Below, in pieces: positions 2,888 to 16,285 of a stretch of 20,000 bases of DNA. The stretch is from an uncultured virus (IMG/VR IMGVR_UViG_3300046368_000651) (lineage: Duplodnaviria; Heunggongvirae; Uroviricota; Caudoviricetes): the IMG/VR virus record IMGVR_UViG_3300046368_000651, positions 55,759-75,758 of that record; one strand, written 5' to 3'. The notes under the pieces were generated by a model. It saw nothing but the letters and a program-made list of their open reading frames with translations, had not been told where the DNA came from and made no database searches. Position numbers and translations under genes: made by a program. Every line of letters begins with the position of its first letter. Position 1 is the first letter of the stretch.

Positions 2888-3154
2888 TTAACTTAGTTTC
2901 TTTTTAATCCACATGTAGATTGCATACACTACTAATAAGTATGCTGTGGCTACTGTAACGTCTACAATATGTTCTCGCATGTGATAGATAAATTCTATAC
3001 CTGCTTGTACATCGCCCTGACTTCCTGAGTTTTCAGTAATGTTTATTGTCTTACCTTCAAATCCATCAAATGCCCCATCTTCAATAATAATATCACATTC
3101 GATACAGTCTTCTTCGCTAGTAGGAAATTCTACTGTTTGATTTATGTCTGCCAT
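2888..3154 (-). CDS. Hypothetical acidic protein with a C-terminal transmembrane helix
   Basis: ORF preceded by a TAAATA box (3181-3186). Hydrophobic VTVATAYLLVVYAIYMWI is followed by KKK. Confidence 0.7.
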   Translation of the reverse strand: MADINQTVEFPTSEEDCIECDIIIEDGAFDGFEGKTINITENSGSQGDVQAGIEFIYHMREHIVDVTVATAYLLVVYAIYMWIKKKLS

Positions 3155-3190
3155 TGCCCTGCCCTGTTATGTACTATGTTTATTTAGTCA

Positions 3191-3219
3191 TAAAAAAAGG
3201 CCGCATAAAGCGACCTTTT
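3191..3219 (-). terminator. Rho-independent terminator after the porin-like gene
   Basis: Minus strand AAAAGGTCGC-TTTAT-GCGGCC-TTTTTTT. Confidence 0.85.
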
Positions 3220-3237
3220 AGTTGTTATGTGTTTAAC

Positions 3238-4044
3238 TTAGAAGTTGAACGATAAACCTGCTGATGGTGTAAAGTCTTCTGCATCTGTGTCATAGTCAAC
3301 ACCAGCAGTAAATTCTGCACCTGCATAGTCCATTGTGTACTCACCACCAATGTGCTGTAGTGTGTTTGCATCTGTACCGTTTACGTATGCTGTTAGTGAG
3401 TTTACTGCAAATGTGCCTTCATATGCAAATACTTCTGCATCTGTGTCATATGTTAATGCACTACCTGCTGTTGCTACACCTAAGTCTACGCCAGATACTG
3501 CACCACCGAACACTGTGTTTTCACTGTCCATGTTGTAGTCCATTGCACCTGTAATAGCAAAACGATCCATATCAATTGTGTATGAACCTTGAATGTTGCT
3601 TACATCAGTTACATCTGTTGTCCAGTCTGTTAAGCCTAGTGCTACACTTGCACCAGCTACTGATACTGCTAATGATTCTGTCATTGCTGGTGTTGCCAAT
3701 GTTCCGTCAGCTGCTGCATTTGCATCTGTTTCTGGCATTAAGTTGTTGTCGTCACCAAACGCTAAGCCTACGCCTGCTACTGTAGTTCCTACAGTCCATG
3801 TGTCTAGTGTTAGAGCACTACCGTCTGTTGCACTAAAGTCTAGATCTACTGTTGCCAATGAACCTGCATCGATGTCTAGTTCGATACCCATTGTGCCACC
3901 GTAGTTGTCACCAGCTGTTTCAGCAAAGTCTAAGTTTACTGCACCTGAGATAACTGGGCCTGTTGGAGCCGCTGTTGTTGTGTCTTCCGCTGAAGCCGCA
4001 CTTGCAAATGCCGCTACTGCTAAAATGGTAAATACGTTACGCAT
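3238..4044 (-). CDS. Porin-like outer membrane beta-barrel protein (alphaproteobacterial type)
   Basis: Sec signal peptide (MRNVFTILAVAAFASAASA), acidic G/A/T/D-rich amphipathic beta-strand pattern, C-terminal AGLSFNF ending in Phe (BAM signal), SD GAAGGA. Confidence 0.75.
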   Translation of the reverse strand: MRNVFTILAVAAFASAASAEDTTTAAPTGPVISGAVNLDFAETAGDNYGGTMGIELDIDAGSLATVDLDFSATDGSALTLDTWTVGTTVAGVGLAFGDDNNLMPETDANAAADGTLATPAMTESLAVSVAGASVALGLTDWTTDVTDVSNIQGSYTIDMDRFAITGAMDYNMDSENTVFGGAVSGVDLGVATAGSALTYDTDAEVFAYEGTFAVNSLTAYVNGTDANTLQHIGGEYTMDYAGAEFTAGVDYDTDAEDFTPSAGLSFNF

Positions 4045-4082
4045 AATAATTTCCTTCTTGTTTTGTTATGTGTTCATAAAGT

Positions 4083-4109
4083 AAAGGGCAAGTTCGACGC
4101 TTGCCCTTT
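4083..4109 (-). other. Perfect 10-bp stem-loop in the porin 5' leader (5' stabiliser or terminator of the upstream operon)
   Basis: AAAGGGCAAG-CGTCGAA-CTTGCCCTTT, just downstream of TATAAATA (4118-4125). Confidence 0.7.
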
Positions 4110-4117
4110 CACTGTTT

Positions 4118-4147
4118 TATTTATAACATACTTTAGTAAAAGTGCAA
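4118..4147 (-). promoter_or_regulatory. Composite sigma70-like / late promoter of the porin gene
   Basis: GGTTGCAC-N16-TATAAATA (TGT precedes TATAAA). Confidence 0.55.
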
Positions 4148-4192
4148 CCGTTTAGGTGAATCTTTACTGAAAGTGTGTTCTCTTTGCAACAG

Positions 4193-4414
4193 TTATCCGC
4201 CGCCTTGAAATGTACCGTCATTGGCTCTATACCAATTCTTTTGGTTGTGTATTCTACCCAACAGTTCTTGTATCTCTGTCATTTCATCATGCAGTTGTGT
4301 TGATACATCACCTTGTGCAATAGCCATACCTCTACGACCTGCTTTTGCTCTTAGTGCTGATTCAATAACTTCAATGTCACGAATCGATAATTCAAACTGT
4401 TTGTTAGGTTTCAT
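4193..4414 (-). CDS. Hypothetical protein, last gene of the coupled cassette
   Basis: Starts 1 nt after the upstream stop; helical, soluble-looking, 73 aa. Confidence 0.7.
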   Translation of the reverse strand: MKPNKQFELSIRDIEVIESALRAKAGRRGMAIAQGDVSTQLHDEMTEIQELLGRIHNQKNWYRANDGTFQGGG

Positions 4415-4415
4415 A

Positions 4416-4625
4416 TCACCAAACTCCTAATGTTCTTCCGTTGCCTGCTATAATAGCACAACATGTTAGTATATGCAAGACAATCCAAAACGTTCTAAAC
4501 GCTAGTGCTCGTCTTACATCTTTTTGTCGAATGGGCAAGAACTCTGGTTTGTCATCGTCACTAAGTCCGATTGGCATTCCAACTGTCCTTGCCCACATTT
4601 TTAAAAAGCGTCTTTGTCCGCTCAA
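4416..4625 (-). CDS. Small membrane protein (probable TTG start overlapping the DoxX stop)
   Basis: TTGA overlap at 4625-4622 with GAGG upstream. Sequence ...KMWARTVGMPIG...RTFWIVLHILTCCAIIAGNGR has one TM helix. The track start at 4667 is probably too far upstream; ATG at about 4598 is an alternative. Confidence 0.65.
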   Translation of the reverse strand: MSGQRRFLKMWARTVGMPIGLSDDDKPEFLPIRQKDVRRALAFRTFWIVLHILTCCAIIAGNGRTLGVW

Positions 4626-5029
4626 GTTCTGTTTCCTCGCAGAGCAAAGTACATGCCACCTACCCAAAGTAGTACATGCAGATTGTCATACCATAAGACG
4701 TCCCAGAAACTTTCGGGTTCGCCTGTCCATATAACACCTGTCATAATACTGGCAATAGTAATACCACTGAAACGTGTAATAACATCGCCAAACTCTTTTG
4801 TGCGTTTGATATAGTCTGCCATGCCGCCGACCAACAATCCTGCGGCAGCACCAAGCTCTCCAAGTACAACAAACGTCCAAACTAATAGTGTAAGTTCTAC
4901 TGGTGAGTCTTCAATGTTGATTGGCCACTTGTTCATTCCTTGCTGAAAGAATACAACAATAAGCGGAATACGAAGCAGCCAATGAGTCATACAAAACTCT
5001 GGTATTCTGTGTACTAAAGTTTTAATCAT
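4622..5029 (-). CDS. DoxX-family membrane protein
   Basis: WLLRIPLIVVFFQQGMNKW, VVLGELGAAAGLLVGG and TRFSG pattern; about 4 TM segments. Confidence 0.75.
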   Translation of the reverse strand: MIKTLVHRIPEFCMTHWLLRIPLIVVFFQQGMNKWPINIEDSPVELTLLVWTFVVLGELGAAAGLLVGGMADYIKRTKEFGDVITRFSGITIASIMTGVIWTGEPESFWDVLWYDNLHVLLWVGGMYFALRGNRT

Positions 5030-5448
5030 TACAGATCAGCCAGCAACTCCTTGAATTTCTTTTTTGACTTGCCTTTTACTTTTGTTTTGGAAATATCATT
5101 ATCTCCGTCACCTACAACTACAATAGCAATCATACCCATTGTTTTGTGTGGAGTACACTGATACAAATACACACCTGGTGTGTCAAATGTAATCGCAACT
5201 TCTTTTGATAGTTTTGATTTACGTGGTGCGTCCCATCCGTCCGGACCTGCAATAAATTCTACATTGTGTCCTTTTGATGTTGGTACCCATGTGATTGTAT
5301 CGCCTACTTCAATACGTGCGATATCTTCACTATATACCATCTTAGCGCCATCTTCACGCTTGTTTAGCATATCGATCGTCATATCCTCTGCGAGTGCCGG
5401 AGTGGCAAGGGCGAGGATAATACTTACTGAACTTAATAATTTTCTCAT
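5029..5448 (-). CDS. Pseudoazurin (type 1 blue copper protein)
   Basis: Signal peptide; MLNK...MVY...GDTITWVPTSKGHNV; GVYLYQCTPHKTMGM supplies His/Cys/His/Met copper ligands with pseudoazurin spacing (C-x2-H-x4-M). Confidence 0.92.
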   Translation of the reverse strand: MRKLLSSVSIILALATPALAEDMTIDMLNKREDGAKMVYSEDIARIEVGDTITWVPTSKGHNVEFIAGPDGWDAPRKSKLSKEVAITFDTPGVYLYQCTPHKTMGMIAIVVVGDGDNDISKTKVKGKSKKKFKELLADL

Positions 5449-5657
5449 TTCTTATCCTTTACATTGAGATTGGACGGATTGTATTGTTCGCCATTATAGC
5501 CAGGGTAGGTGTCGTCCTCTACCCCAAAGTTACATGATGCCACAATAAACAAAAATGCTATTGATGCATATGTAGTTCGCTTGCTCCATGTTATGAAGCC
5601 TTCGAATGTCTTTTCTGCTTCTATTTGAGCGGCTGCTCTTACTTCATTGTCTGTCAT
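5445..5657 (-). CDS. aa3-type cytochrome c oxidase subunit IV (CtaH)-like single-TM protein
   Basis: Start MTDNEV through an ATGA overlap with the upstream small ORF. AEKTFEGFITWSKRTTYASIAFLFIVASCN resembles the TFxGFI+TM motif of alphaproteobacterial subunit IV (recalled, not searched). Confidence 0.6.
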   Translation of the reverse strand: MTDNEVRAAAQIEAEKTFEGFITWSKRTTYASIAFLFIVASCNFGVEDDTYPGYNGEQYNPSNLNVKDKK

Positions 5658-5812
5658 TCTAAACCTATACACGGAATAAGAATAGATTGCTTACAATTTT
5701 CTGGGTAAGCAATAGCTGAGCCAAGTATAGGTAGACCAACCATACCAATAATGATAATCAAGAATGCCCAACCTAGGCCTTTTGTAGTGCAATATTGTGT
5801 TTGCTCACTCAT
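5654..5812 (-). CDS. 52-aa membrane protein missing from the ORF track
   Basis: MSEQTQYCTTKGLGWAFLIIIIGMVGLPILGSAIAYPENCKQSILIPCIGLE*. It fills the gap exactly, with an ATGAGTGA overlap upstream and an ATGA overlap downstream. Confidence 0.8.
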   Translation of the reverse strand: MSEQTQYCTTKGLGWAFLIIIIGMVGLPILGSAIAYPENCKQSILIPCIGLE

Positions 5813-6164
5813 GCTCGCCACCATTTGCTCGGCCGTTGTACTTACGTCCTGATTTCAAAATGTTGTTAAGTGACTCTGGATTATTTTCTGCTTGACGGAA
5901 TGTTACAACTGTAATTGTAATACCACTAATCAAAAGCAAGTGAAAGGCTGCGCTTAGGCCAAAAGCCACGTAACTTCCTACCATTAGGGCAAAGATGCCA
6001 CTCCAGATAAAAAACAGACACTGGAAGATCATGTGTCCTACCATAGGGTCTAAATTACGTAGTGGTGACTTTTCTACTGTCATTACACTGTCCCACATTT
6101 CACGTGGAATGTTTGCAATTTCAGTTAGTGTGGTTGCCCAACCAATGGGTTTTGGATTCTTCAT
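5805..6164 (-). CDS. Hypothetical membrane protein with two His residues in or near TM helices
   Basis: SD CAGGAG; WDSVM..EKSPLR..D..VGHMIFQ..FIWSGIF...AAFHLLLISGITITVVTF. Confidence 0.8.
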   Translation of the reverse strand: MKNPKPIGWATTLTEIANIPREMWDSVMTVEKSPLRNLDPMVGHMIFQCLFFIWSGIFALMVGSYVAFGLSAAFHLLLISGITITVVTFRQAENNPESLNNILKSGRKYNGRANGGEHE

Positions 6165-6197
6165 AGTTTTCTCCTGTGTGTCTTTTGGTGTGTACTA

Positions 6198-6226
6198 TAT
6201 ATAGCATAAAAAAATACAGAAGTCAA
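6198..6226 (-). promoter_or_regulatory. Sigma70-type promoter TTGACT-N17-TATATA driving the redox cassette
   Basis: Minus strand GGTTGACT TCTGTATTTTTTTATGC TATATA. Confidence 0.65.
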
Positions 6227-6240
6227 CCGTGCAAGGTGTG

Positions 6241-6846
6241 TTAAATTGTAGCAGGCATAGTAAATAATGCATGTACACCATCATCGGTTGGCCTACGTGC
6301 AAATACGCACCACTTGATTACATCTTGATTAGGATAATGTTCGTCACAATACTCTCGAAAACTTGTTCCTGTTGTGTACACATCATCTGCAATTAATACA
6401 GGATCTGTTGGATCTCCGCTTGCATATTTGTTTAGTGCTTCGCCTAGTGCCATACCGCCTCTTGGGATACCTTCGGCTTTGTAGAAAGGACGTTTTTGGT
6501 AATCCATTATCATACGTGCAAGTCCTTCCCACCACTCTGGGCGTATAGCATCGCACTCAATCTTCCATGCTAGTTTTAGTCCTGCATGACTTGTAAAGTC
6601 GCCAACTTCAAATAAATCTGCGCCTGTTCTAAATACCATTAGTTCTCTTTCCAATTCTTCAATATAATCTGCTGCTTGCCAAGCAAAATGTTCTGTGCAT
6701 CTTGTCTTCCATTCTTCGCCTGCTTGATTTTTTAATCTTACAACCCATTCACTTTTTTGTTGTCTTGGTATAATATCTGTATATACCTTATCAACTACAT
6801 CGTGTTCGTTTTCTTCTAATTCGAATCCGTGTGTATTATGCGTCAT
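6241..6846 (-). CDS. Type I phosphoribosyltransferase (orotate PRT-like) with an N-terminal extension
   Basis: GDFTSHAG, KIECDA, GIPRGG and PRPP-binding LIADDVYTTGTS. The PRT domain could also start at ATG 6639. Confidence 0.75.
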   Translation of the reverse strand: MTHNTHGFELEENEHDVVDKVYTDIIPRQQKSEWVVRLKNQAGEEWKTRCTEHFAWQAADYIEELERELMVFRTGADLFEVGDFTSHAGLKLAWKIECDAIRPEWWEGLARMIMDYQKRPFYKAEGIPRGGMALGEALNKYASGDPTDPVLIADDVYTTGTSFREYCDEHYPNQDVIKWCVFARRPTDDGVHALFTMPATI

Positions 6847-7651
6847 TATTAGCACCTGTTATCATTTTAATATTCTGTGACAACTTTGCGTTGAACTCTG
6901 CATCTGTTTGCGAATGTGCTAGTCCTTCACTTAATGCTCTGCTAAAACTTGCTGTGATGTCATTATTCATTGATAGCCTACGGCATGCTTCTTGTGTAGC
7001 ATATCCGCCACTAAGGAATACAACCTTTTCTACGTTGTGTTTAACTGTCAAGTTATGATACAAGTTAGGTGTTTCAGGAGGTGTTAGTTTAAGAATAACG
7101 GAAAAGTCTTTGCCTTGTAAATATATTTCTAACAATCGATACAGCTCATCTTCAATTGCGGCTTTGTCAGGATGATCAATCGGCACTTCGGGTTCGACAA
7201 TTGGTACAAGACCGTACTCACTAATTGTGTGTGCTAGTTCAAACTGCTGTTTAAGAACTGCACCTATCATGCTTTCACTTTTAATAATGCTACGCATCTT
7301 AGTGCCGTAGATTCGAGGACCAATGCCGTTTGTAGCCCATTCGCACATAGCACGTACATCAAATTCTTTGAGCATACCGTTGTCTTCGCATCCGCTATCA
7401 ACTTTTAGAAACGTGTCAATACCTTTTTCATCAAGCACATTAACCATGCCGCGGGTGACTGTGTCTTGGTAGAGGATTGCTCCCCAGATGTTTGAGTCGT
7501 TGAAGTCAGGACTGTTGACCATTCTAAGACGCATAGCATGAACTTTCTCCATCTTGTTTTCTTCTGTGTATTCTTGTCCGTAGCGTTCTAGTACGCCACC
7601 TGTTGAACCACCACTGTGATCCATTGCTGCAATAAATCTATGATCACTCAT
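6836..7651 (-). CDS. fda: Class I fructose-bisphosphate aldolase (bacterial type)
   Basis: FIAAMDHSGGST, FLKVDSG, GTKMRS, GLVPIVEPEV, LKLT (Schiff-base Lys), VVFLSGGY and ASFSRAL. Start is set at MSDHRF (ATGAGTGA overlap). Confidence 0.9.
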   Translation of the reverse strand: MSDHRFIAAMDHSGGSTGGVLERYGQEYTEENKMEKVHAMRLRMVNSPDFNDSNIWGAILYQDTVTRGMVNVLDEKGIDTFLKVDSGCEDNGMLKEFDVRAMCEWATNGIGPRIYGTKMRSIIKSESMIGAVLKQQFELAHTISEYGLVPIVEPEVPIDHPDKAAIEDELYRLLEIYLQGKDFSVILKLTPPETPNLYHNLTVKHNVEKVVFLSGGYATQEACRRLSMNNDITASFSRALSEGLAHSQTDAEFNAKLSQNIKMITGANNDA

Positions 7652-7982
7652 ATGTTTCGCCTGTTTCACGGAAGAAGTTTTCACTCCAAAATGCTTTGTC
7701 GTCAATCCATACATCGTAGTTTTCTTTTTTGCCTACGCTGAGTTCATGATACTTTGCACCCCAACCCTCTAATTGGTTCTTGGTTAGGTCGTAATAGTCA
7801 ACGCCACTAACACACCCGCGAGCAGTCATATACTTAATTGTATGTCCTGCATCGTACAATGCATTTACTCGTGCAATGCGTTCTGGCATTGGAATATGAT
7901 TTGCATAATCCTTCTTGCCGCCGCTGTCTGGAATAATTACTTCCTTGCAGATCGTACCGTCGATATCAATTACATATTTCAT
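7644..7982 (-). CDS. Small HAD-superfamily phosphatase (capsule-biosynthesis phosphatase-like)
   Basis: IDIDGTI, YMTARG, GK and WIDDKA (HAD motifs I-IV). Confidence 0.85.
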   Translation of the reverse strand: MKYVIDIDGTICKEVIIPDSGGKKDYANHIPMPERIARVNALYDAGHTIKYMTARGCVSGVDYYDLTKNQLEGWGAKYHELSVGKKENYDVWIDDKAFWSENFFRETGETYE

Positions 7983-8001
7983 TAAACGTCCTTTATATTA
8001 G

Positions 8002-8305
8002 AGTGGCACTTCTGTTGCTAGGCAGTACCCGCCCCCACATACCCTTAGGCTGCTAATGCCATTTCTGGCGCATAATTGTTATTTGCAATTATAAAGTTTG
8101 ACCAATAACGCAGTCATCCGGTTAACTCCACTTCACTTTCACACCTGTCGATCCTAGTTCTGCCCCATCATAAACATACGACTTGCGGCTTTCGGCCCTT
8201 GTCCTATGCACAGGAAAGTAGGTGCATCTACTCTCATATGTTTATGGTGGAGCAGCGCGGTACTGCCCCGCGGTCCAGTATGTGTCTACGTTGCTTCAAC
8301 GTCAA
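8002..8305 (-). ncRNA. ssrA: Circularly permuted two-piece tmRNA (alphaproteobacterial type)
   Basis: The acceptor piece ends ...GGAC-CGCGG-GGCAGTA-CCGCG-CTGCTCC-A-CCA (CCA end at 8245). The coding piece starts GGGGCAG-AACTAGGATCGAC at 8166. They form a 7-bp acceptor stem with a G3:U70 pair. The tag ORF at 8086-8045 reads ANNNYAPEMALAA*. Outer ends are approximate. Confidence 0.95.
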
Positions 8306-8310
8306 CATAT

Positions 8311-8341
8311 TATTTATAACATAGTTTTGTAAGCATGTCAA
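8311..8341 (-). promoter_or_regulatory. Composite sigma70 / late promoter of the tmRNA
   Basis: GGTTGACA-N17-TATAAATA. Confidence 0.7.
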
Positions 8342-8350
8342 CCACGAAGA

Positions 8351-8358
8351 TATAAATA
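8351..8358 (+). promoter_or_regulatory. T4-type late promoter TATAAATA
   Basis: TATAAATA-TTAGC-ATG directly before the radical SAM gene. Confidence 0.65.
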
Positions 8359-8363
8359 TTAGC

Positions 8364-9227
8364 ATGAAACCATTTAGTATAGGCGATGCTGCTTTTAATA
8401 TCAGTATGACATGCAATCTTACATGTGAAGGCTGCGAAAGTTTTAACAACTACAATTTTAAAGGGCAAGTAAAATTTGCAGACTATGCCGATTACTATAA
8501 AGAATGGAGTAAAAAACTTAATATCGAAACTGTAACTATTCACGGAGGCGAACCATTTACAAATCCAGACATATTAAATTGGGTTACGAATTTAAAAAGG
8601 TTATGGCCAACTGCTGATGAGTATTATGTAGCAACCAACGGCACTATATTACGTAACAAGATTACAGTTGCAAGACAAATTATAGATCAAGGATACTTTA
8701 TAAATGTAACTGTTCACGATCCTGCAATGTATGAAGACATACGTAATCAACTAGAAGAAGTATTAGAACCATACGACTATCTAATACGTAAAATGGATCT
8801 TGGTTACGAGTATTATGATAAGCATACTGAACAGATATACGGATTGATAGAATATAATTATCACTTTAAAAAAAGTGCTATCGATTATATAAAAGACAAA
8901 ACATGGTACATGCATCGTAGCGATCCTGTTCAAGCCTATAAAACTTGCTTAGAAGATCTTAGTCCTTGTAACTTCTTTCATAAAGGAATGTTATACCAAT
9001 GTCAATTAACAGCATTGCGTGATGATTTATTTTTGCAGTTTAGTATAGAACCTGATGCAGTTGACTTACTAAAAAAGTACAATCACGGGGATCCATTTTA
9101 TCCTATGAATAAACTACGCAAGTTTTTTAGAACTCATAACTTACCAATTCCACAGTGTACTCTATGTCCTGGTTGCCCTGACACACATCCTATATTTCCA
9201 ATGGCTAAAAAGAAAATTAAGTTTTAA
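8364..9227 (+). CDS. Radical SAM enzyme with extra C-terminal Cys residues (possible SPASM/twitch-like domain)
   Basis: CNLTCEGC (CxxxCxxC), HGGEPF, ATNGT; C-terminal C...C...LYQC...PQCTLCP. It is the only real plus-strand gene in the window. Confidence 0.9.
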   Translation: MKPFSIGDAAFNISMTCNLTCEGCESFNNYNFKGQVKFADYADYYKEWSKKLNIETVTIHGGEPFTNPDILNWVTNLKRLWPTADEYYVATNGTILRNKITVARQIIDQGYFINVTVHDPAMYEDIRNQLEEVLEPYDYLIRKMDLGYEYYDKHTEQIYGLIEYNYHFKKSAIDYIKDKTWYMHRSDPVQAYKTCLEDLSPCNFFHKGMLYQCQLTALRDDLFLQFSIEPDAVDLLKKYNHGDPFYPMNKLRKFFRTHNLPIPQCTLCPGCPDTHPIFPMAKKKIKF

Positions 9228-9446
9228 TTACCACTTAGTGGCACGTACTTTAGAAATGTGTCTTTGTGATTTTATTGCATTCATACAACTTAGTATGCGT
9301 CTTGATTTTTGATGGGGTCTATGATAACCATTTTTACTCTGCCAATGTTTATCTTGTTCCATTTCTTTAGCTAATTCTTTAGCCAATAATTGTTCAATAT
9401 ACAACAAATCTTCGTCGCCTAGATTGTTAAGCTCTTTTGACACCAT
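9228..9446 (-). CDS. Hypothetical protein (MVSKELNNLGDEDLL...)
   Basis: SD AGGAGA lies upstream of ATG 9446. The longer track start overlaps the next gene. Confidence 0.65.
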   Translation of the reverse strand: MVSKELNNLGDEDLLYIEQLLAKELAKEMEQDKHWQSKNGYHRPHQKSRRILSCMNAIKSQRHISKVRATKW

Positions 9447-9633
9447 TGTGGAATCTCCTATTATATGCTTGTTCAAAACCTTCTTCATAATCACATAACG
9501 GAGCCCCATTGCAACCGTCGACCCATAGTCTTTTAAAGTAGCTATCTGCTGATTGAAATGCTGTAGCATCACTCTCTGGAATATGGCCTTTTACCATCCA
9601 AAACAACCGATATGCTTCTTTATGTTCTTCCAT
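9427..9633 (-). CDS. Hypothetical protein
   Basis: TATAAATA (9639-9646) lies 5 nt upstream of the ATG. Confidence 0.7.
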   Translation of the reverse strand: MEEHKEAYRLFWMVKGHIPESDATAFQSADSYFKRLWVDGCNGAPLCDYEEGFEQAYNRRFHNGVKRA

Positions 9634-15994: not shown

Positions 15995-16285
15995 CTAGGC
16001 CATTTGAATGCCTGTGGTGCTAGTCATATATTGTTTGGCCATTTCTGGTTCTGTTTTGCACACAAACATCACTGTACTCTTATTTATCGGTACTTTTGCA
16101 TCCTGTGCAATAGTAAATGCAAATGGTGCTAGACCCATTCCTTGCTGTGTTGCCATTAGTGCAAGGGGCTTACTAACTGTAATAGTTTTGTCGTTTTCTT
16201 CAACAAAACGTGCAACAACTTCGTCGCCGCTGGTTGTTTTGATTGTAATTGTATCGTTTGTTTTGTATGGTGCTTCGATAATCAT
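15995..16285 (-). CDS. Conserved phage protein, possible Sm-like/SH3 beta fold
   Basis: TIKTTSGDEVVARF...TVSKPL...GLAPF...Y...TTGI pattern. Confidence 0.65.
   Translation of the reverse strand: MIIEAPYKTNDTITIKTTSGDEVVARFVEENDKTITVSKPLALMATQQGMGLAPFAFTIAQDAKVPINKSTVMFVCKTEPEMAKQYMTSTTGIQMA

Follow-up and report, generated by a model that had tools for sequence, protein, structure and literature searches.

A phage-borne cassette that links pseudoazurin, CtaH-like and DoxX-family genes and may act on the respiratory chain of marine alphaproteobacteria

We propose that a cassette of small genes carried by a large marine phage may act on the aerobic respiratory chain of its bacterial host. The core of the cassette is a trio of genes encoding a pseudoazurin, a protein resembling CtaH (subunit IV of the aa3 oxidase) and a DoxX-family membrane protein, and, judged from gene order, the linkage of these three genes is phage-made. 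The retention of the trio in hundreds of related phages suggests that the respiratory chain of infected bacteria is tuned by the phage. In the reading that we find plausible, if somewhat short of probable, the module would, during infection, sustain or re-route the terminal part of aerobic electron transport, which leads from bc1 through a copper carrier to the aa3 oxidase, perhaps sparing iron or haem. The preliminary description of this DNA had taken the cassette for a module of electron transfer or copper handling, and the phage-borne state of the genes, the identity of the named ones and their recurring linkage bear this out, while the functional steps are all ones that we infer.

The window, by which we mean the whole 20,000-nucleotide stretch that was analysed, makes up the last part of a 75.8-kb viral contig, to which Methylophilales phage Melnitz and Pelagibacter phage HTVC008M are the closest isolates. 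Genes for a tail fibre, a PAAR protein, an endolysin, a ribonucleotide reductase (RNR) and a head protease share this contig with the cassette, in agreement with the original view that its genes are phage-borne. All of the contigs that carry the cassette fall in one broad T4-like phage lineage, a placement that rests on a quick tree, and the hosts are likely to be found among non-photosynthetic or non-cyanobacterial marine alphaproteobacteria. A megablast search with the whole window matched only short pieces of RNR, and the pseudoazurin, DoxX-like, CtaH-like and porin-like proteins had no tblastn match in 50,697 phage records, a set from which records very near this genome were possibly excluded. 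As is the case for phage auxiliary metabolic genes, the cassette genes reside in a phage genome, have close cellular homologues and are conserved in related phages. The cassette was thought not to have been described as a system, and we found no such description in the literature searched, although the genes may be listed under other names in the supplements of PMC7029224 and PMC9004378.

All seven of the minus-strand open reading frames that had been described between 4193 and 6164 are present, and they overlap or abut one another (Table 1). The g1 and g2 genes overlap by 8 nt, the g2/g3 and g3/g4 junctions are both ATGA, those of g4/g5 and g5/g6 are TAATG and TTGA, respectively, and g6 and g7 are separated by a 1-nt gap. 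Three of the genes have alternative starts, namely the second ATG (52 aa) or 5824 (56 aa) for g2, an ATG (70 aa) or an upstream GTG (75 aa) for g3, and a TTG (69 aa) for g6, whose longest reading frame is 83 aa, and in each case the short start is backed by the family alignments. A hydropathy scan places hydrophobic segments in g1, g2, g5 and g6 and none in g7. The T tail of the hairpin that follows g7 is weak on the minus strand.

Table 1. Positions of the cassette genes and neighbouring features in the window
Feature	Position	Strand	Description
g1	5805-6164	-	119-aa membrane protein, family unassigned by Pfam/PHROG/NCBIfam
g2	5654-5812	-	52-aa single-pass membrane protein, three Cys
g3	5445-5657	-	70-aa CtaH-like protein (aa3 oxidase subunit IV family)
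g4	5029-5448	-	139-aa pseudoazurin precursor: signal peptide and type-1 copper domain
g5	4622-5029	-	135-aa DoxX-family membrane protein
g6	4416-4625	-	69-aa protein, single C-terminal hydrophobic helix
g7	4193-4414	-	73-aa soluble, probably helical protein, family unassigned
g8	3238-4044	-	porin-like outer-membrane beta-barrel adjoining the cassette
Promoter-like site, sigma-70-like	6198-6226	-	TTGACT, 17-nt spacer, TATATA; ~35 nt upstream of the g1 start
Hairpin	4083-4109		11-bp, G+C-rich, in the 148-nt g7/g8 gap; possible terminator or attenuator

The promoter claimed upstream of g1 is there as described, with TTGACT at 6226-6221 and TATATA at 6203-6198 on either side of the 17-nt spacer. 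A bare match of this kind means little, because a consensus scan of positions 3000-8500 gave 12 promoter-like sites against 14.9 expected by chance; the scan rule requires the last -10 position to be T and did not list the g1 site. Conservation is more informative, as among 14 distinct sequences from upstream of the g1 relatives, 12 have a loose -35/-10 pattern, and in most of these 12 (8-10 by eye) the TTGACTT and CTATATA/CTAAAT boxes are in the same place with a spacer that varies. The cassette is also present in RNA libraries. In six metatranscriptome runs, each from a different study, 49-73% of the sequence words are present, and contigs from four of these runs cover the cassette and cross the g7/g6/g5, g4/g3/g2 and g3/g2/g1 junctions; such contigs reveal neither the strand nor whether one transcript spans the genes, and the libraries may contain DNA. 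The depth of the RNA contigs is low across 6132-6305, and in all four runs the cassette is covered more deeply than the stretch upstream of it (6306-8045). Transcription that starts at the promoter would be expected to give such a pattern, but contigs cannot show starts or rank genes, and the pattern is not counted as evidence here.

The description of the g4 product as a pseudoazurin with intact copper ligand motifs is upheld by matches to Pfam Copper-bind (1.5e-15) and to the pseudoazurin in PDB 1bqk (8.4e-25), in which the GHN and C-T-P-H-x-x-M-G-M motifs are aligned. The residues that we take, from the known structure, to be the type-1 copper ligands (His61, Cys98, His101 and Met106) are invariant across 13 viral pseudoazurin sequences. 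In NCBIfam, g4 matches TIGR02375 over positions 1-115 of 116 with the C-terminal helical extension kept, and the alignment to 1bqk reaches residue 114 of 124. The TIGR02375 score of 103.3 bits is slightly below the equivalog cut-off of 109.85, and pseudoazurin is clearly the best assignment when compared with amicyanin (47.4 bits) and plastocyanin (34.9 bits), with E-values of 6.2e-30 for pseudoazurin versus 1.5e-8 for plastocyanin. Hence g4 resembles the pseudoazurins of alphaproteobacteria and other denitrifiers (PDB 1bqk, 1paz, 1adw) over its full length, helical C-terminal extension included, and keeps their ligand motifs and signal peptide, and it differs from them in being phage-encoded and in falling just short of the equivalog score. 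All 13 of the aligned viral pseudoazurins have an N-terminal hydrophobic segment that ends in A-x-A ahead of the conserved mature start, and export of the protein to the periplasm is predicted from this segment.

Pseudoazurins are donors to denitrification enzymes, and we know of none that is a donor to an aa3 oxidase, which counts against a respiratory role for g4. Cellular homologues are 42-73% identical to the phage protein. Copper nitrite reductase is encoded in none of the five cellular genomes that have close pseudoazurins, and thus the classical partner is probably absent in these closest carriers; one COX1 is present in four of the same five, which makes the aa3 oxidase a plausible partner instead. 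A complex prediction for the mature pseudoazurin and the CtaH-like protein (score 0.01, mark 0.32) counts neither for nor against binding.

The assignment of g3 as CtaH-like holds as well, given a match to Pfam COX4_pro_2 (PF07835) at 24.7-24.9 bits, above the cut-off of 22, and matches to the same family by 8 of 13 viral g3 family members (E ≤ 0.01). When aligned by hhalign to three cellular CtaH members, the g3 family gives 86.6% (E 4.5e-6, 29 columns), and in phage and cellular proteins alike a hydrophobic helix comes after a K-T-[FY]-x-x-F motif. They differ in length, as the phage forms have 63-83 aa with a conserved tail whereas cellular CtaH has 36-45 aa as called. The phage-specific tail is ~29 aa long, conserved and rich in Tyr, Asn and Gly, and it opens with a nearly invariant Cys in a lipobox-like V-A-S-C context, followed by Asn. 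Compared with subunit IV of the aa3 oxidase (CtaH, PF07835), g3 thus exceeds ~45 aa, has a shorter hydrophobic stretch (~14-17 residues) and carries the Cys and conserved tail; because this short stretch ends in V-A-S-C, it could serve as a lipoprotein signal that is cleaved off, in which case g3 would not be a stable subunit of the oxidase. The 102 close relatives of g3 are all metagenomic. In one cellular genome CtaH lies ~1.2 kb from COX1, and in two cellular genomes it adjoins a pntA-like gene and not cox genes, which counts against the respiratory reading.

That g5 belongs to the DoxX family, as had been stated, rests on its family members, all 11 of which match Pfam DoxX (E ≤ 0.05, best 1.1e-8). 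The phage protein itself scores 18.2 bits against this model (PF07681), below the cut-off of 23.6, and two cellular relatives score 27.1 and 30.7 bits. An Atlas search with g5 returned DoxX clusters for 29 of 30 matches, Cys13, His16 and His118 are invariant in the family, and cellular relatives, found in two alphaproteobacterial genomes, reach ~70% identity over pieces of 55-62 residues. In hydropathy g5 passes the threshold only at ~44-71, with further hydrophobic stretches visible, and the DoxX family has about four membrane helices. The likeness to the DoxX family, which includes the DoxX of bufferin gene clusters and DoxD-type quinone-linked proteins, lies in a family match across all viral members. 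The sections of PMC12452194 that deal with DoxX proteins give no established mechanism for them.

The remaining genes are less easily placed. The size and membrane segments of g1 agree with its description as a 119-aa membrane protein with two His, and the family alignment gives three invariant His (44, 75 and 118). In the protein an amphipathic N-terminal helix precedes a two-helix hairpin, and His44-Met45, His75 and a C-terminal G-E-H are all invariant. Its predicted fold is a helical hairpin (pLDDT 70.6), for which Foldseek found nothing in the PDB at E ≤ 0.001. Neither g1 nor g2 has a Pfam, PHROG or NCBIfam match. A profile search with g1 gave 234 representative clusters at E ≤ 1e-3, and the clusters looked up yielded only 'hypothetical protein', one 'YdbS-like' label and one Puniceispirillales MAG protein; among the 62 of these clusters scanned against Pfam, which were drawn from the best 150 of the 234, no family recurs, and an Atlas search returned unnamed viral clusters only. 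Homologues of g1 are found in Melnitz, within a similar run of small hypothetical genes, and in an OCS116 single-cell genome, beside crtI/crtB/crtY. Nothing in Melnitz matches the pseudoazurin, the DoxX-like protein or the CtaH-like protein. Bis-His haem sites had been named as something to look for in the membrane proteins, and one within a single g1 monomer was set aside, because in the model the two membrane His are at opposite ends of the hairpin, and g1 matches no haem-protein family.

The sequence and hydropathy of g2 agree with a 52-aa membrane protein containing three Cys, and it directly follows g1 in most gene arrangements. The 69-aa g6, which was also correctly described as having a membrane segment, carries Cys residues as does g2. 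Comparison by hhalign of 18 small neighboring families found no relation among them, and since the best pair reaches only 10.8%, the families f14 and f15 are not diverged forms of g1 or g2. The g8 product, which adjoins the cassette, has a signal peptide and a C-terminal Phe, and its AF2 model (pLDDT 75.6) has 16 strands and best matches the Rhodobacter (Rhodopseudomonas) blastica porin by Foldseek (E 3.7e-9), so g8 may belong to the same envelope island as the cassette.

One argument for a common function is the linkage of these genes. The cassette is common in a collection of viral contigs, with 268 and 378 matching stretches, the 268 being those that encode a pseudoazurin relative. Linkage was counted in the 46 pseudoazurin loci that have at least 2.5 kb on either side, which form 26 clusters at 95% identity. 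The CtaH-like gene is present in 19 of these clusters, DoxX in 18, g2 in 17 and g1 in 13; at least two of these four are present in 22 clusters and at most one in the other four. Looser neighbors are g7 (14 clusters), the porin gene g8 (nine), g6 (five) and a PRT-like gene (five). Around the viral pseudoazurin there are 47 distinct gene orders with several different flanks. Pseudoazurin is present in 42 of 47 viral loci found with DoxX as the seed and in 26 of 38 found with the CtaH-like protein, a scan that used a single protein as query. In cells the situation is different. Among 63 loci in marine alphaproteobacteria that encode the closest pseudoazurins, none has a CtaH-like, g2, DoxX, g6 or g7 gene within 8 kb, the pseudoazurin gene has varied contexts, and CtaH and DoxX are sited elsewhere. 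The trio is thus kept together in viral contigs despite shuffled orders and flanks yet is never together in these cellular loci, which is the basis for regarding the linkage as phage-made. The synteny looked for in both phage and alphaproteobacterial genomes therefore holds in the former and fails in the latter, and the cassette of seven narrows to a tight association of pseudoazurin, CtaH-like and DoxX genes, with g1 and g2 as frequent neighbors and g6 and g7 as looser ones.

Linkage could also arise if the region is an accessory-gene hot spot of the T4-like lineage, in which small genes that are neutral or useful each on its own accumulate and, with no joint function, travel together by shared descent and shared early expression, and we consider this improbable. 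Since all of the contigs come from one broad lineage, shared descent inflates the co-occurrence. Unrelated small reading frames come and go in the region (families f10, f11, f14, f15, f26 and f22), the g1 homologue in Melnitz sits in a comparable run of small genes, and every partner is absent from some loci; indeed, the 12 CtaH-seeded loci that lack pseudoazurin, the four clusters with missing partners and the g1 of Melnitz all count against a joint respiratory role. A hot spot would not readily explain why three genes from separate host loci stay within ~2 kb across the 47 orders and several different flanks, why the PRT-like, g6 and porin genes of the same region are kept far less often, why stop and start codons overlap, or why pseudoazurin is so rarely missing beside DoxX.

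In the respiratory reading that we prefer, the phage would have assembled the module from genes scattered in marine alphaproteobacterial genomes, and host polymerase would probably transcribe it from one conserved sigma-70-like promoter. The products would be a secreted pseudoazurin, a CtaH-like membrane protein with a phage-specific periplasmic tail, and DoxX, along with several small membrane proteins. Electrons from bc1, or from quinol via DoxX, would pass through the copper carrier to the aa3 oxidase, in which the phage CtaH-like protein would fill the small-subunit site. ATP for replication would be secured with a carrier that needs copper and not haem iron.

Much the same set of proteins might instead serve in periplasmic copper or redox/thiol-stress handling, which we regard as unlikely. 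The cupredoxin would then be a copper store or a redox buffer and not a respiratory carrier, and DoxX and the small membrane proteins bearing His, Met and Cys would buffer copper or oxidative damage to the envelope. The residues that would be expected to do so are present, in the invariant His44-Met45, His75 and G-E-H of g1, the Cys of g2 and g6, and Cys13 and His16 of DoxX, and a porin gene comes next after the cassette. Copper in the open ocean is scarce rather than toxic, however, the phage protein retains in full the type-1 copper site and C-terminal helix that characterize pseudoazurins of electron transfer, and the CtaH-like protein would have no role in such handling. According to the sections of PMC12452194 on bufferins, DoxX genes belong to the core of clusters that aid growth under copper stress, in which a precursor (DUF2282 or similar), an MNIO enzyme (DUF692) and a DUF2063 partner form the core beside DoxX. 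A Pfam search of the cassette, extended to all open reading frames from 4193 to 7982, matched no DUF2282 precursor, MNIO or DUF2063 partner, and the idea that the cassette is a bufferin cluster was rejected because these partner genes are missing.

Two further proposals are more doubtful. It is quite unlikely that the entry port of the oxidase is rebuilt altogether, with the CtaH-like protein in the place of subunit IV, its tail docking a pseudoazurin that is fed by quinol via DoxX, cytochrome c dispensed with and bc1 bypassed; such a route would run on while the haem oxygenase and bilin reductase of the phage strip haem for iron. Remodelling of the envelope for superinfection block or lysis timing, in which the small membrane proteins and the porin would alter the cell surface or membrane in the manner of many early phage membrane proteins and pseudoazurin alone would be metabolic, would accord with hydrophobic segments in five of the seven products, the porin after the cassette, the lipobox-like Cys and Asn at the start of the g3 tail and an endolysin gene 2 kb downstream, but it is likewise quite unlikely, given that two of the membrane proteins come from redox-associated cellular families with close host relatives and that no cassette reading frame matches a PHROG exclusion or lysis family.

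Phage genes that sustain host energy conversion are well known for cyanophages and photosynthesis, with petE plastocyanin, petF and PTOX as examples of electron-transport auxiliary genes, and to our knowledge very little is known of comparable phage genes for the respiration of the abundant marine heterotrophic bacteria. The cassette resembles cyanophage petE in that a phage carries a host-type blue copper carrier that presumably sustains host energy conversion, and g4 matches PHROG 515 'PetE plastocyanine' at 1.1e-7. It differs in that the carrier is a pseudoazurin, the gene for it is linked with those for the CtaH-like and DoxX proteins and the hosts are likely marine alphaproteobacteria. 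The cassette thus unites three genes that are held apart in cells. If it does act on the respiratory chain, then part of the respiratory machinery in infected cells of major marine alphaproteobacteria would be viral, which would affect carbon turnover as well as the demand for copper and iron. Since the phage sets both the oxidase subunit IV family and the DoxX family beside a defined partner, the cassette also offers a handle on these two families, both of which are poorly understood.

A connection between phages and respiration has been made from the side of cofactor supply. The main text of PMC11480375, in which the words azurin, plastocyanin and copper are all absent, argues that phage tetrapyrrole genes (haem oxygenase, PcyX/PcyA-type bilin reductase and AlaS) help to maintain the function of respiratory enzymes, cytochrome c oxidase among them. 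What these genes affect is the supply of the cofactor, whereas the cassette encodes a carrier and membrane components. The two are also found together, as the contig that carries the cassette has genes for a haem oxygenase and a bilin reductase, and in another group of phages hemF- and hemC-like phage genes are found within 1-2 kb of the CtaH-like gene.

The pseudoazurin gene of this phage (g4) lies within a cassette of seven minus-strand ORFs (g1 to g7), all of which are present as claimed in the preliminary description and are overlapping or nearly abutting from 6164 to 4193. The junctions from g1 to g7 are, in order, an 8-nt overlap, ATGA, ATGA, TAATG, TTGA and a 1-nt gap, and family conservation of g2, g3 and g6 begins at their shorter starts. 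The immediate upstream neighbours are an aldolase-like and a phosphoribosyltransferase (PRT)-like gene. The contig is clearly from a phage, as it encodes tail fibre proteins, a PAAR protein, an endolysin, both RNR subunits, thioredoxin, a head maturation protease and a baseplate-related protein, and its nearest cultured relatives by the 681-aa CHASE2-cyclase protein are Methylophilales phage Melnitz (51% identity) and Pelagibacter phage HTVC008M (34%). Its haem oxygenase and bilin reductase genes are separated by one ORF without a recognised family, and we take them to resemble the HemO/PcyX pairs of marine phages. The window makes up the final 20 kb of its IMG/VR record. This source record has 75,758 bases and an estimated completeness of 24% (CheckV), which would fit the jumbo size of a related genome, contig PBPT01000016.1 (L101; 335,231 bases). 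This contig is filed in a 'Candidatus Neomarinimicrobiota' MAG and additionally encodes a pseudoazurin and a g1 relative; since it has at least 10 protein genes in common with our phage, we regard it as probably a jumbo phage of this lineage whose genome was mis-binned.

Positions of the cassette and other features (window positions unless a locus is named; L084 is the stretch of the same contig upstream of the window)
Feature	Position	Strand	Remarks
g1, unknown membrane protein	5805-6164	-	119 aa
g2, single-pass membrane protein with three Cys	5654-5812	-	52 aa
g3, CtaH-like	5445-5657	-	70 aa
g4, pseudoazurin	5029-5448	-	139 aa
g5, DoxX family	4622-5029	-	135 aa
g6, one C-terminal hydrophobic helix	4416-4625	-	69 aa
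g7, soluble	4193-4414	-	73 aa
g8, porin-like outer-membrane barrel	3238-4044	-	directly downstream of cassette
11-bp hairpin	4083-4109		within 148-nt gap, g7 to next gene
TTGACT, 17-nt spacer, TATATA	6226-6198	-	in 76-nt gap upstream of g1
Second upstream motif	6229-6255		same place in loci L025, L028, L034, L062, L069, L072
PRT-like protein	6241-6855	-	204 aa; faint phosphoribosyltransferase match
Class I fructose-bisphosphate aldolase-like gene	6836-7714	-	NCBIfam PRK05377 3.1e-72, below model cut-off
Radical SAM protein	8364-9227	+	region's only plus-strand gene
Small protein adjoining PAAR gene	15995-16285	-	96 aa
Metatranscriptome contig cover	3845-4380		spans g8/g7
Metatranscriptome contig cover	4377-4655		spans g7/g6/g5
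Metatranscriptome contig cover	5212-5773		spans g4/g3/g2
Metatranscriptome contig cover	5619-6066		spans g3/g2/g1
CHASE2-adenylate/guanylate cyclase	L084 2811-4856	-	auxiliary gene
CsgG curli secretion protein	L084 10654-11436	-	auxiliary gene
Ferredoxin-dependent bilin reductase	L084 13392-14078	-	1.8e-16
Haem oxygenase	L084 15253-15792	-	Pfam 3.3e-16
Hsp20	L084 16138-16605	-	auxiliary gene
IMPDH/GMP-reductase-like	L084 16637-17797	-	auxiliary gene
Cellular g1 homologue	L157 18943-19302	-	OCS116 single-cell genome, contig 13

The names originally given to g4, g3 and g5 are upheld by family matches. Judged by its sequence, g4 is a pseudoazurin, with matches to Pfam Copper-bind (1.5e-15), to PDB pseudoazurins (8.4e-25, in an alignment that includes the GHN and C-T-P-H-x-x-M-G-M motifs) and, over the whole model, to NCBIfam pseudoazurin at 103.3 bits, which is slightly short of the equivalog cut-off (109.85) and much higher than the amicyanin and plastocyanin scores. 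The copper ligands described as intact (His61, Cys98, His101 and Met106) are retained, together with the signal peptide, in all 13 of the diverse viral copies. The CtaH-like g3 matches COX4_pro_2, the family of subunit IV of bacterial aa3 oxidases, at 24.7-24.9 bits (cut-off 22), and 8 of 13 viral family members match it individually. It has a motif before the helix in common with three cellular members from marine alphaproteobacteria, and comparison of the g3 family profile with cellular CtaH gives 86.6% probability (E 4.5e-6). The phage proteins differ from cellular CtaH in that the hydrophobic stretch is just about 14-17 residues long and ends at a nearly invariant Cys in a lipobox-like V-[AVF]-[SGA]-C, followed by Asn and a conserved Tyr/Asn/Gly-rich tail of about 25-30 residues; close relatives of g3 (n = 102, 63-83 aa) are all metagenomic. 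The window copy of g5 scores 18.2 bits against Pfam DoxX, below the cut-off of 23.6, while DoxX is matched in 11 of 11 viral members (best 1.1e-8), DoxX clusters make up 29 of its 30 Atlas neighbours, and Cys13, His16 and His118 are invariant. By these family matches, g5 is a DoxX-family protein.

No known family was found for g1 (Pfam, PHROG, NCBIfam, Atlas and a Pfam scan of relatives) or for g2, g6 and g7 (Pfam, PHROG and NCBIfam). The g1 protein is predicted to form an amphipathic helix followed by a two-helix hairpin, its family has invariant His44, His75 and C-terminal G-E-H residues, and a profile search gave 234 representative clusters. The porin-like g8 starts with a signal peptide and ends with Phe, and its AF2 model (pLDDT 75.6) shows 16 strands; its best Foldseek match is the porin of Rhodobacter (Rhodopseudomonas) blastica (3.7e-9), and tblastn gave no match in 50,697 phage records.

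The single promoter proposed for the cassette is present as a site, but such consensus matches are by themselves no better than chance (12 found versus 14.9 expected). Its boxes are conserved among g1 relatives: the loose -35/-10 pattern is matched in 12 of 14 distinct upstream sequences, most of which (8-10 of the 12 by eye) have TTGACTT and CTATATA/CTAAAT boxes at a fixed distance from the start with a varying spacer. We interpret conserved boxes with a changing spacer as the mark of a functional promoter. Some 10-25 nt farther upstream than the -35 box is another conserved motif (roughly GCTACA-N-TTTAACACACC), which persists in loci with a different upstream gene and which, in the window, overlaps with the end of the PRT-like ORF. 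Sampled words of 3200-7000 were 49-73% present in six metatranscriptome runs from six studies, and contigs from four of the six runs, placed at ≥95% identity, cover the cassette and span gene junctions. They are consistent with expression of the cassette and not proof of it, since contigs tell us neither the strand nor whether one transcript spans the genes, and RNA libraries may contain DNA.

Pseudoazurin relatives are encoded in 268 viral stretches, and the 46 loci examined, with at least 2.5 kb on either side, fall into 26 clusters when grouped at 95% pseudoazurin identity. A CtaH-like gene is near pseudoazurin in 19 of these clusters, DoxX in 18, g2 in 17, g7 in 14, g1 in 13, the porin-like g8 in nine, and g6 and the upstream PRT-like gene in five each, with at least two of the four main partners (CtaH-like, DoxX, g2 and g1) in 22. 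The genes occur in 47 different orders (for example, pseudoazurin-DoxX-CtaH and CtaH-DoxX-...-pseudoazurin), and the flanks vary from an aldolase/PRT side to an Hsp20-like or a cell-wall hydrolase side. The 47 DoxX-seeded loci with full flanks include pseudoazurin in 42 and a CtaH-like gene in 32, and the 38 CtaH-seeded loci include pseudoazurin in 26 and DoxX in 19, although the counts are not independent events because the locus sets share contigs and come from one broad lineage. Recurrence, shuffling and reciprocity indicate that selection keeps at least the core trio of pseudoazurin, CtaH-like and DoxX together. In another group of related phage contigs (L268-L274), coproporphyrinogen III oxidase- and porphobilinogen deaminase-like genes (both identified from L270 only) are located 1-2 kb downstream of the CtaH-like gene, at about 6130-7840 per locus, with no pseudoazurin nearby.

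Synteny, suggested as a check in phage and alphaproteobacterial genomes, holds in the former but not in the latter, as CtaH-like, g2, DoxX, g6 and g7 genes are within 8 kb of pseudoazurin in none of 63 cellular loci. These encode the closest cellular pseudoazurins (42-73% identity; Rhodobacteraceae, 'Rhodospirillaceae' MAGs, OCS116, Pelagibacterales and SAR116), each a lone gene in varied surroundings, and the sole g1 match among them is that of L101. In two marine alphaproteobacteria (L148 and L149, of genomes G004 and G001), a small COX4_pro_2 gene outside any cox operon is immediately upstream of an AlaDh/PNT (pntA-like) gene, and in a third genome CtaH is about 1.2 kb from COX1. One cellular DoxX relative (about 70% identity over pieces) is flanked by dehydrogenase and nitrilase-family genes, and that of Pelagibacter HTCC9565 stands between pirin and CDGSH genes (pirin-DoxX-CDGSH), with the COX2 gene about 1.8 kb away. 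In a pseudoazurin tree, 46 of 47 viral rows form one supported group, which an unresolved fork joins to the 47th (L069) and to a cellular group of Ascidiaceihabitans-type Rhodobacteraceae and a long-branch SAR116 set; the tree gives no firm donor, as it is a short, midpoint-rooted quick search. The pseudoazurin of a 43-kb contig from a 'Rhodobacteraceae' bin (L092) nests inside the viral group, and this stretch has 35% G+C, whereas the Ascidiaceihabitans loci have about 50%; we consider a viral origin or mis-binning of the contig probable.

We tentatively propose that the cassette could be a respiratory support module, because the classical pseudoazurin partner is probably missing, because of the pairing with an oxidase subunit IV family protein, and because of the tetrapyrrole gene content. 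No copper nitrite reductase was found in the five incomplete cellular genomes with close pseudoazurins, hence the probable absence of the classical partner, and four of the five have a single COX1. The aa3 oxidase would be the obvious electron acceptor, to which the subunit IV pairing points too, and the haem oxygenase, the bilin reductase and the L268-L274 tetrapyrrole genes also point to respiration; phage tetrapyrrole genes have been argued to help keep respiratory enzymes working (PMC11480375, in the portion available). The products would be directed to the envelope, with pseudoazurin located in the periplasm, the small proteins in the inner membrane and a porin-like barrel encoded next. 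In this scheme, the oxidase would receive electrons from the copper carrier and would be the site of action of the CtaH-like protein, and DoxX might be a quinol link. Against a respiratory role, g3 could instead be a cleaved lipoprotein, given its short hydrophobic stretch and its lipobox-like Cys, cellular CtaH genes are not always beside cox genes, and pseudoazurin is absent in 12 of the 38 CtaH-seeded loci. Moreover, Melnitz, in which the pseudoazurin, DoxX-like and CtaH-like proteins have no match, encodes a clear g1 homologue (tblastn 1e-7; family profile 1.2e-41), and the cellular g1 homologue (family-profile E 2.4e-25) adjoins crtI-, crtB- and crtY-like carotenoid genes and lytB. Given these points, g1, g2, g6 and g7 may be mere neighbours of the core trio. 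The interpretation first given, of a respiratory or copper module, is partly supported, and each of the steps proposed above is one that we infer.

A role in copper or redox stress, which would suit the His, Met and Cys content of the cassette proteins and the presence of DoxX in bufferin clusters (PMC12452194, in the portion available), is unlikely; a Pfam scan of the cassette region found the bufferin partner genes absent. It is similarly improbable that the genes have no joint function: many unrelated small ORFs do come and go in the region, but this fails to account for three genes of separate host loci staying within about 2 kb despite rearrangement. Envelope remodelling or exclusion, suggested by the membrane bias of the products and the porin, has no family support in PHROG and is very unlikely.

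The functionally nearest known system to the respiratory module proposed here is the cyanophage electron-transport gene set, which includes plastocyanin (petE) and PTOX, and we would rate the cassette as an auxiliary electron-transport module, but a multi-gene one that would serve respiration in phages of heterotrophs. Nitrifier viruses with cupredoxin genes are reportedly already in print. In the literature searched, nothing relevant was found on pseudoazurin in phage, as judged by titles and the start of abstracts, or on DoxX as an auxiliary metabolic gene; for marine cupredoxin auxiliary metabolic genes the records, in the parts available, concerned nitrifier viruses only, and for plastocyanin in Pelagibacter phage the titles were only of cyanophage and plankton metatranscriptome work. 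Plastocyanin, azurin, cytochrome, DoxX and respirat- are absent from the main texts of a pelagimyophage survey (PMC7029224) and the Melnitz paper (PMC9004378), in which 'copper' refers to EM grids only. A description of the cassette was not found in this literature, with most subscription journals outside its scope.

Elsewhere in the window, G+C falls to 33-37% at 8000-9500, around the radical SAM gene. The 96-aa protein encoded next to the PAAR gene matches PHROG 527 (9.2e-16) and, weakly, PHROG 471 'methylamine utilization' (3.9e-4), with no Pfam match, and may be a second MauE/DoxX-like small membrane protein.
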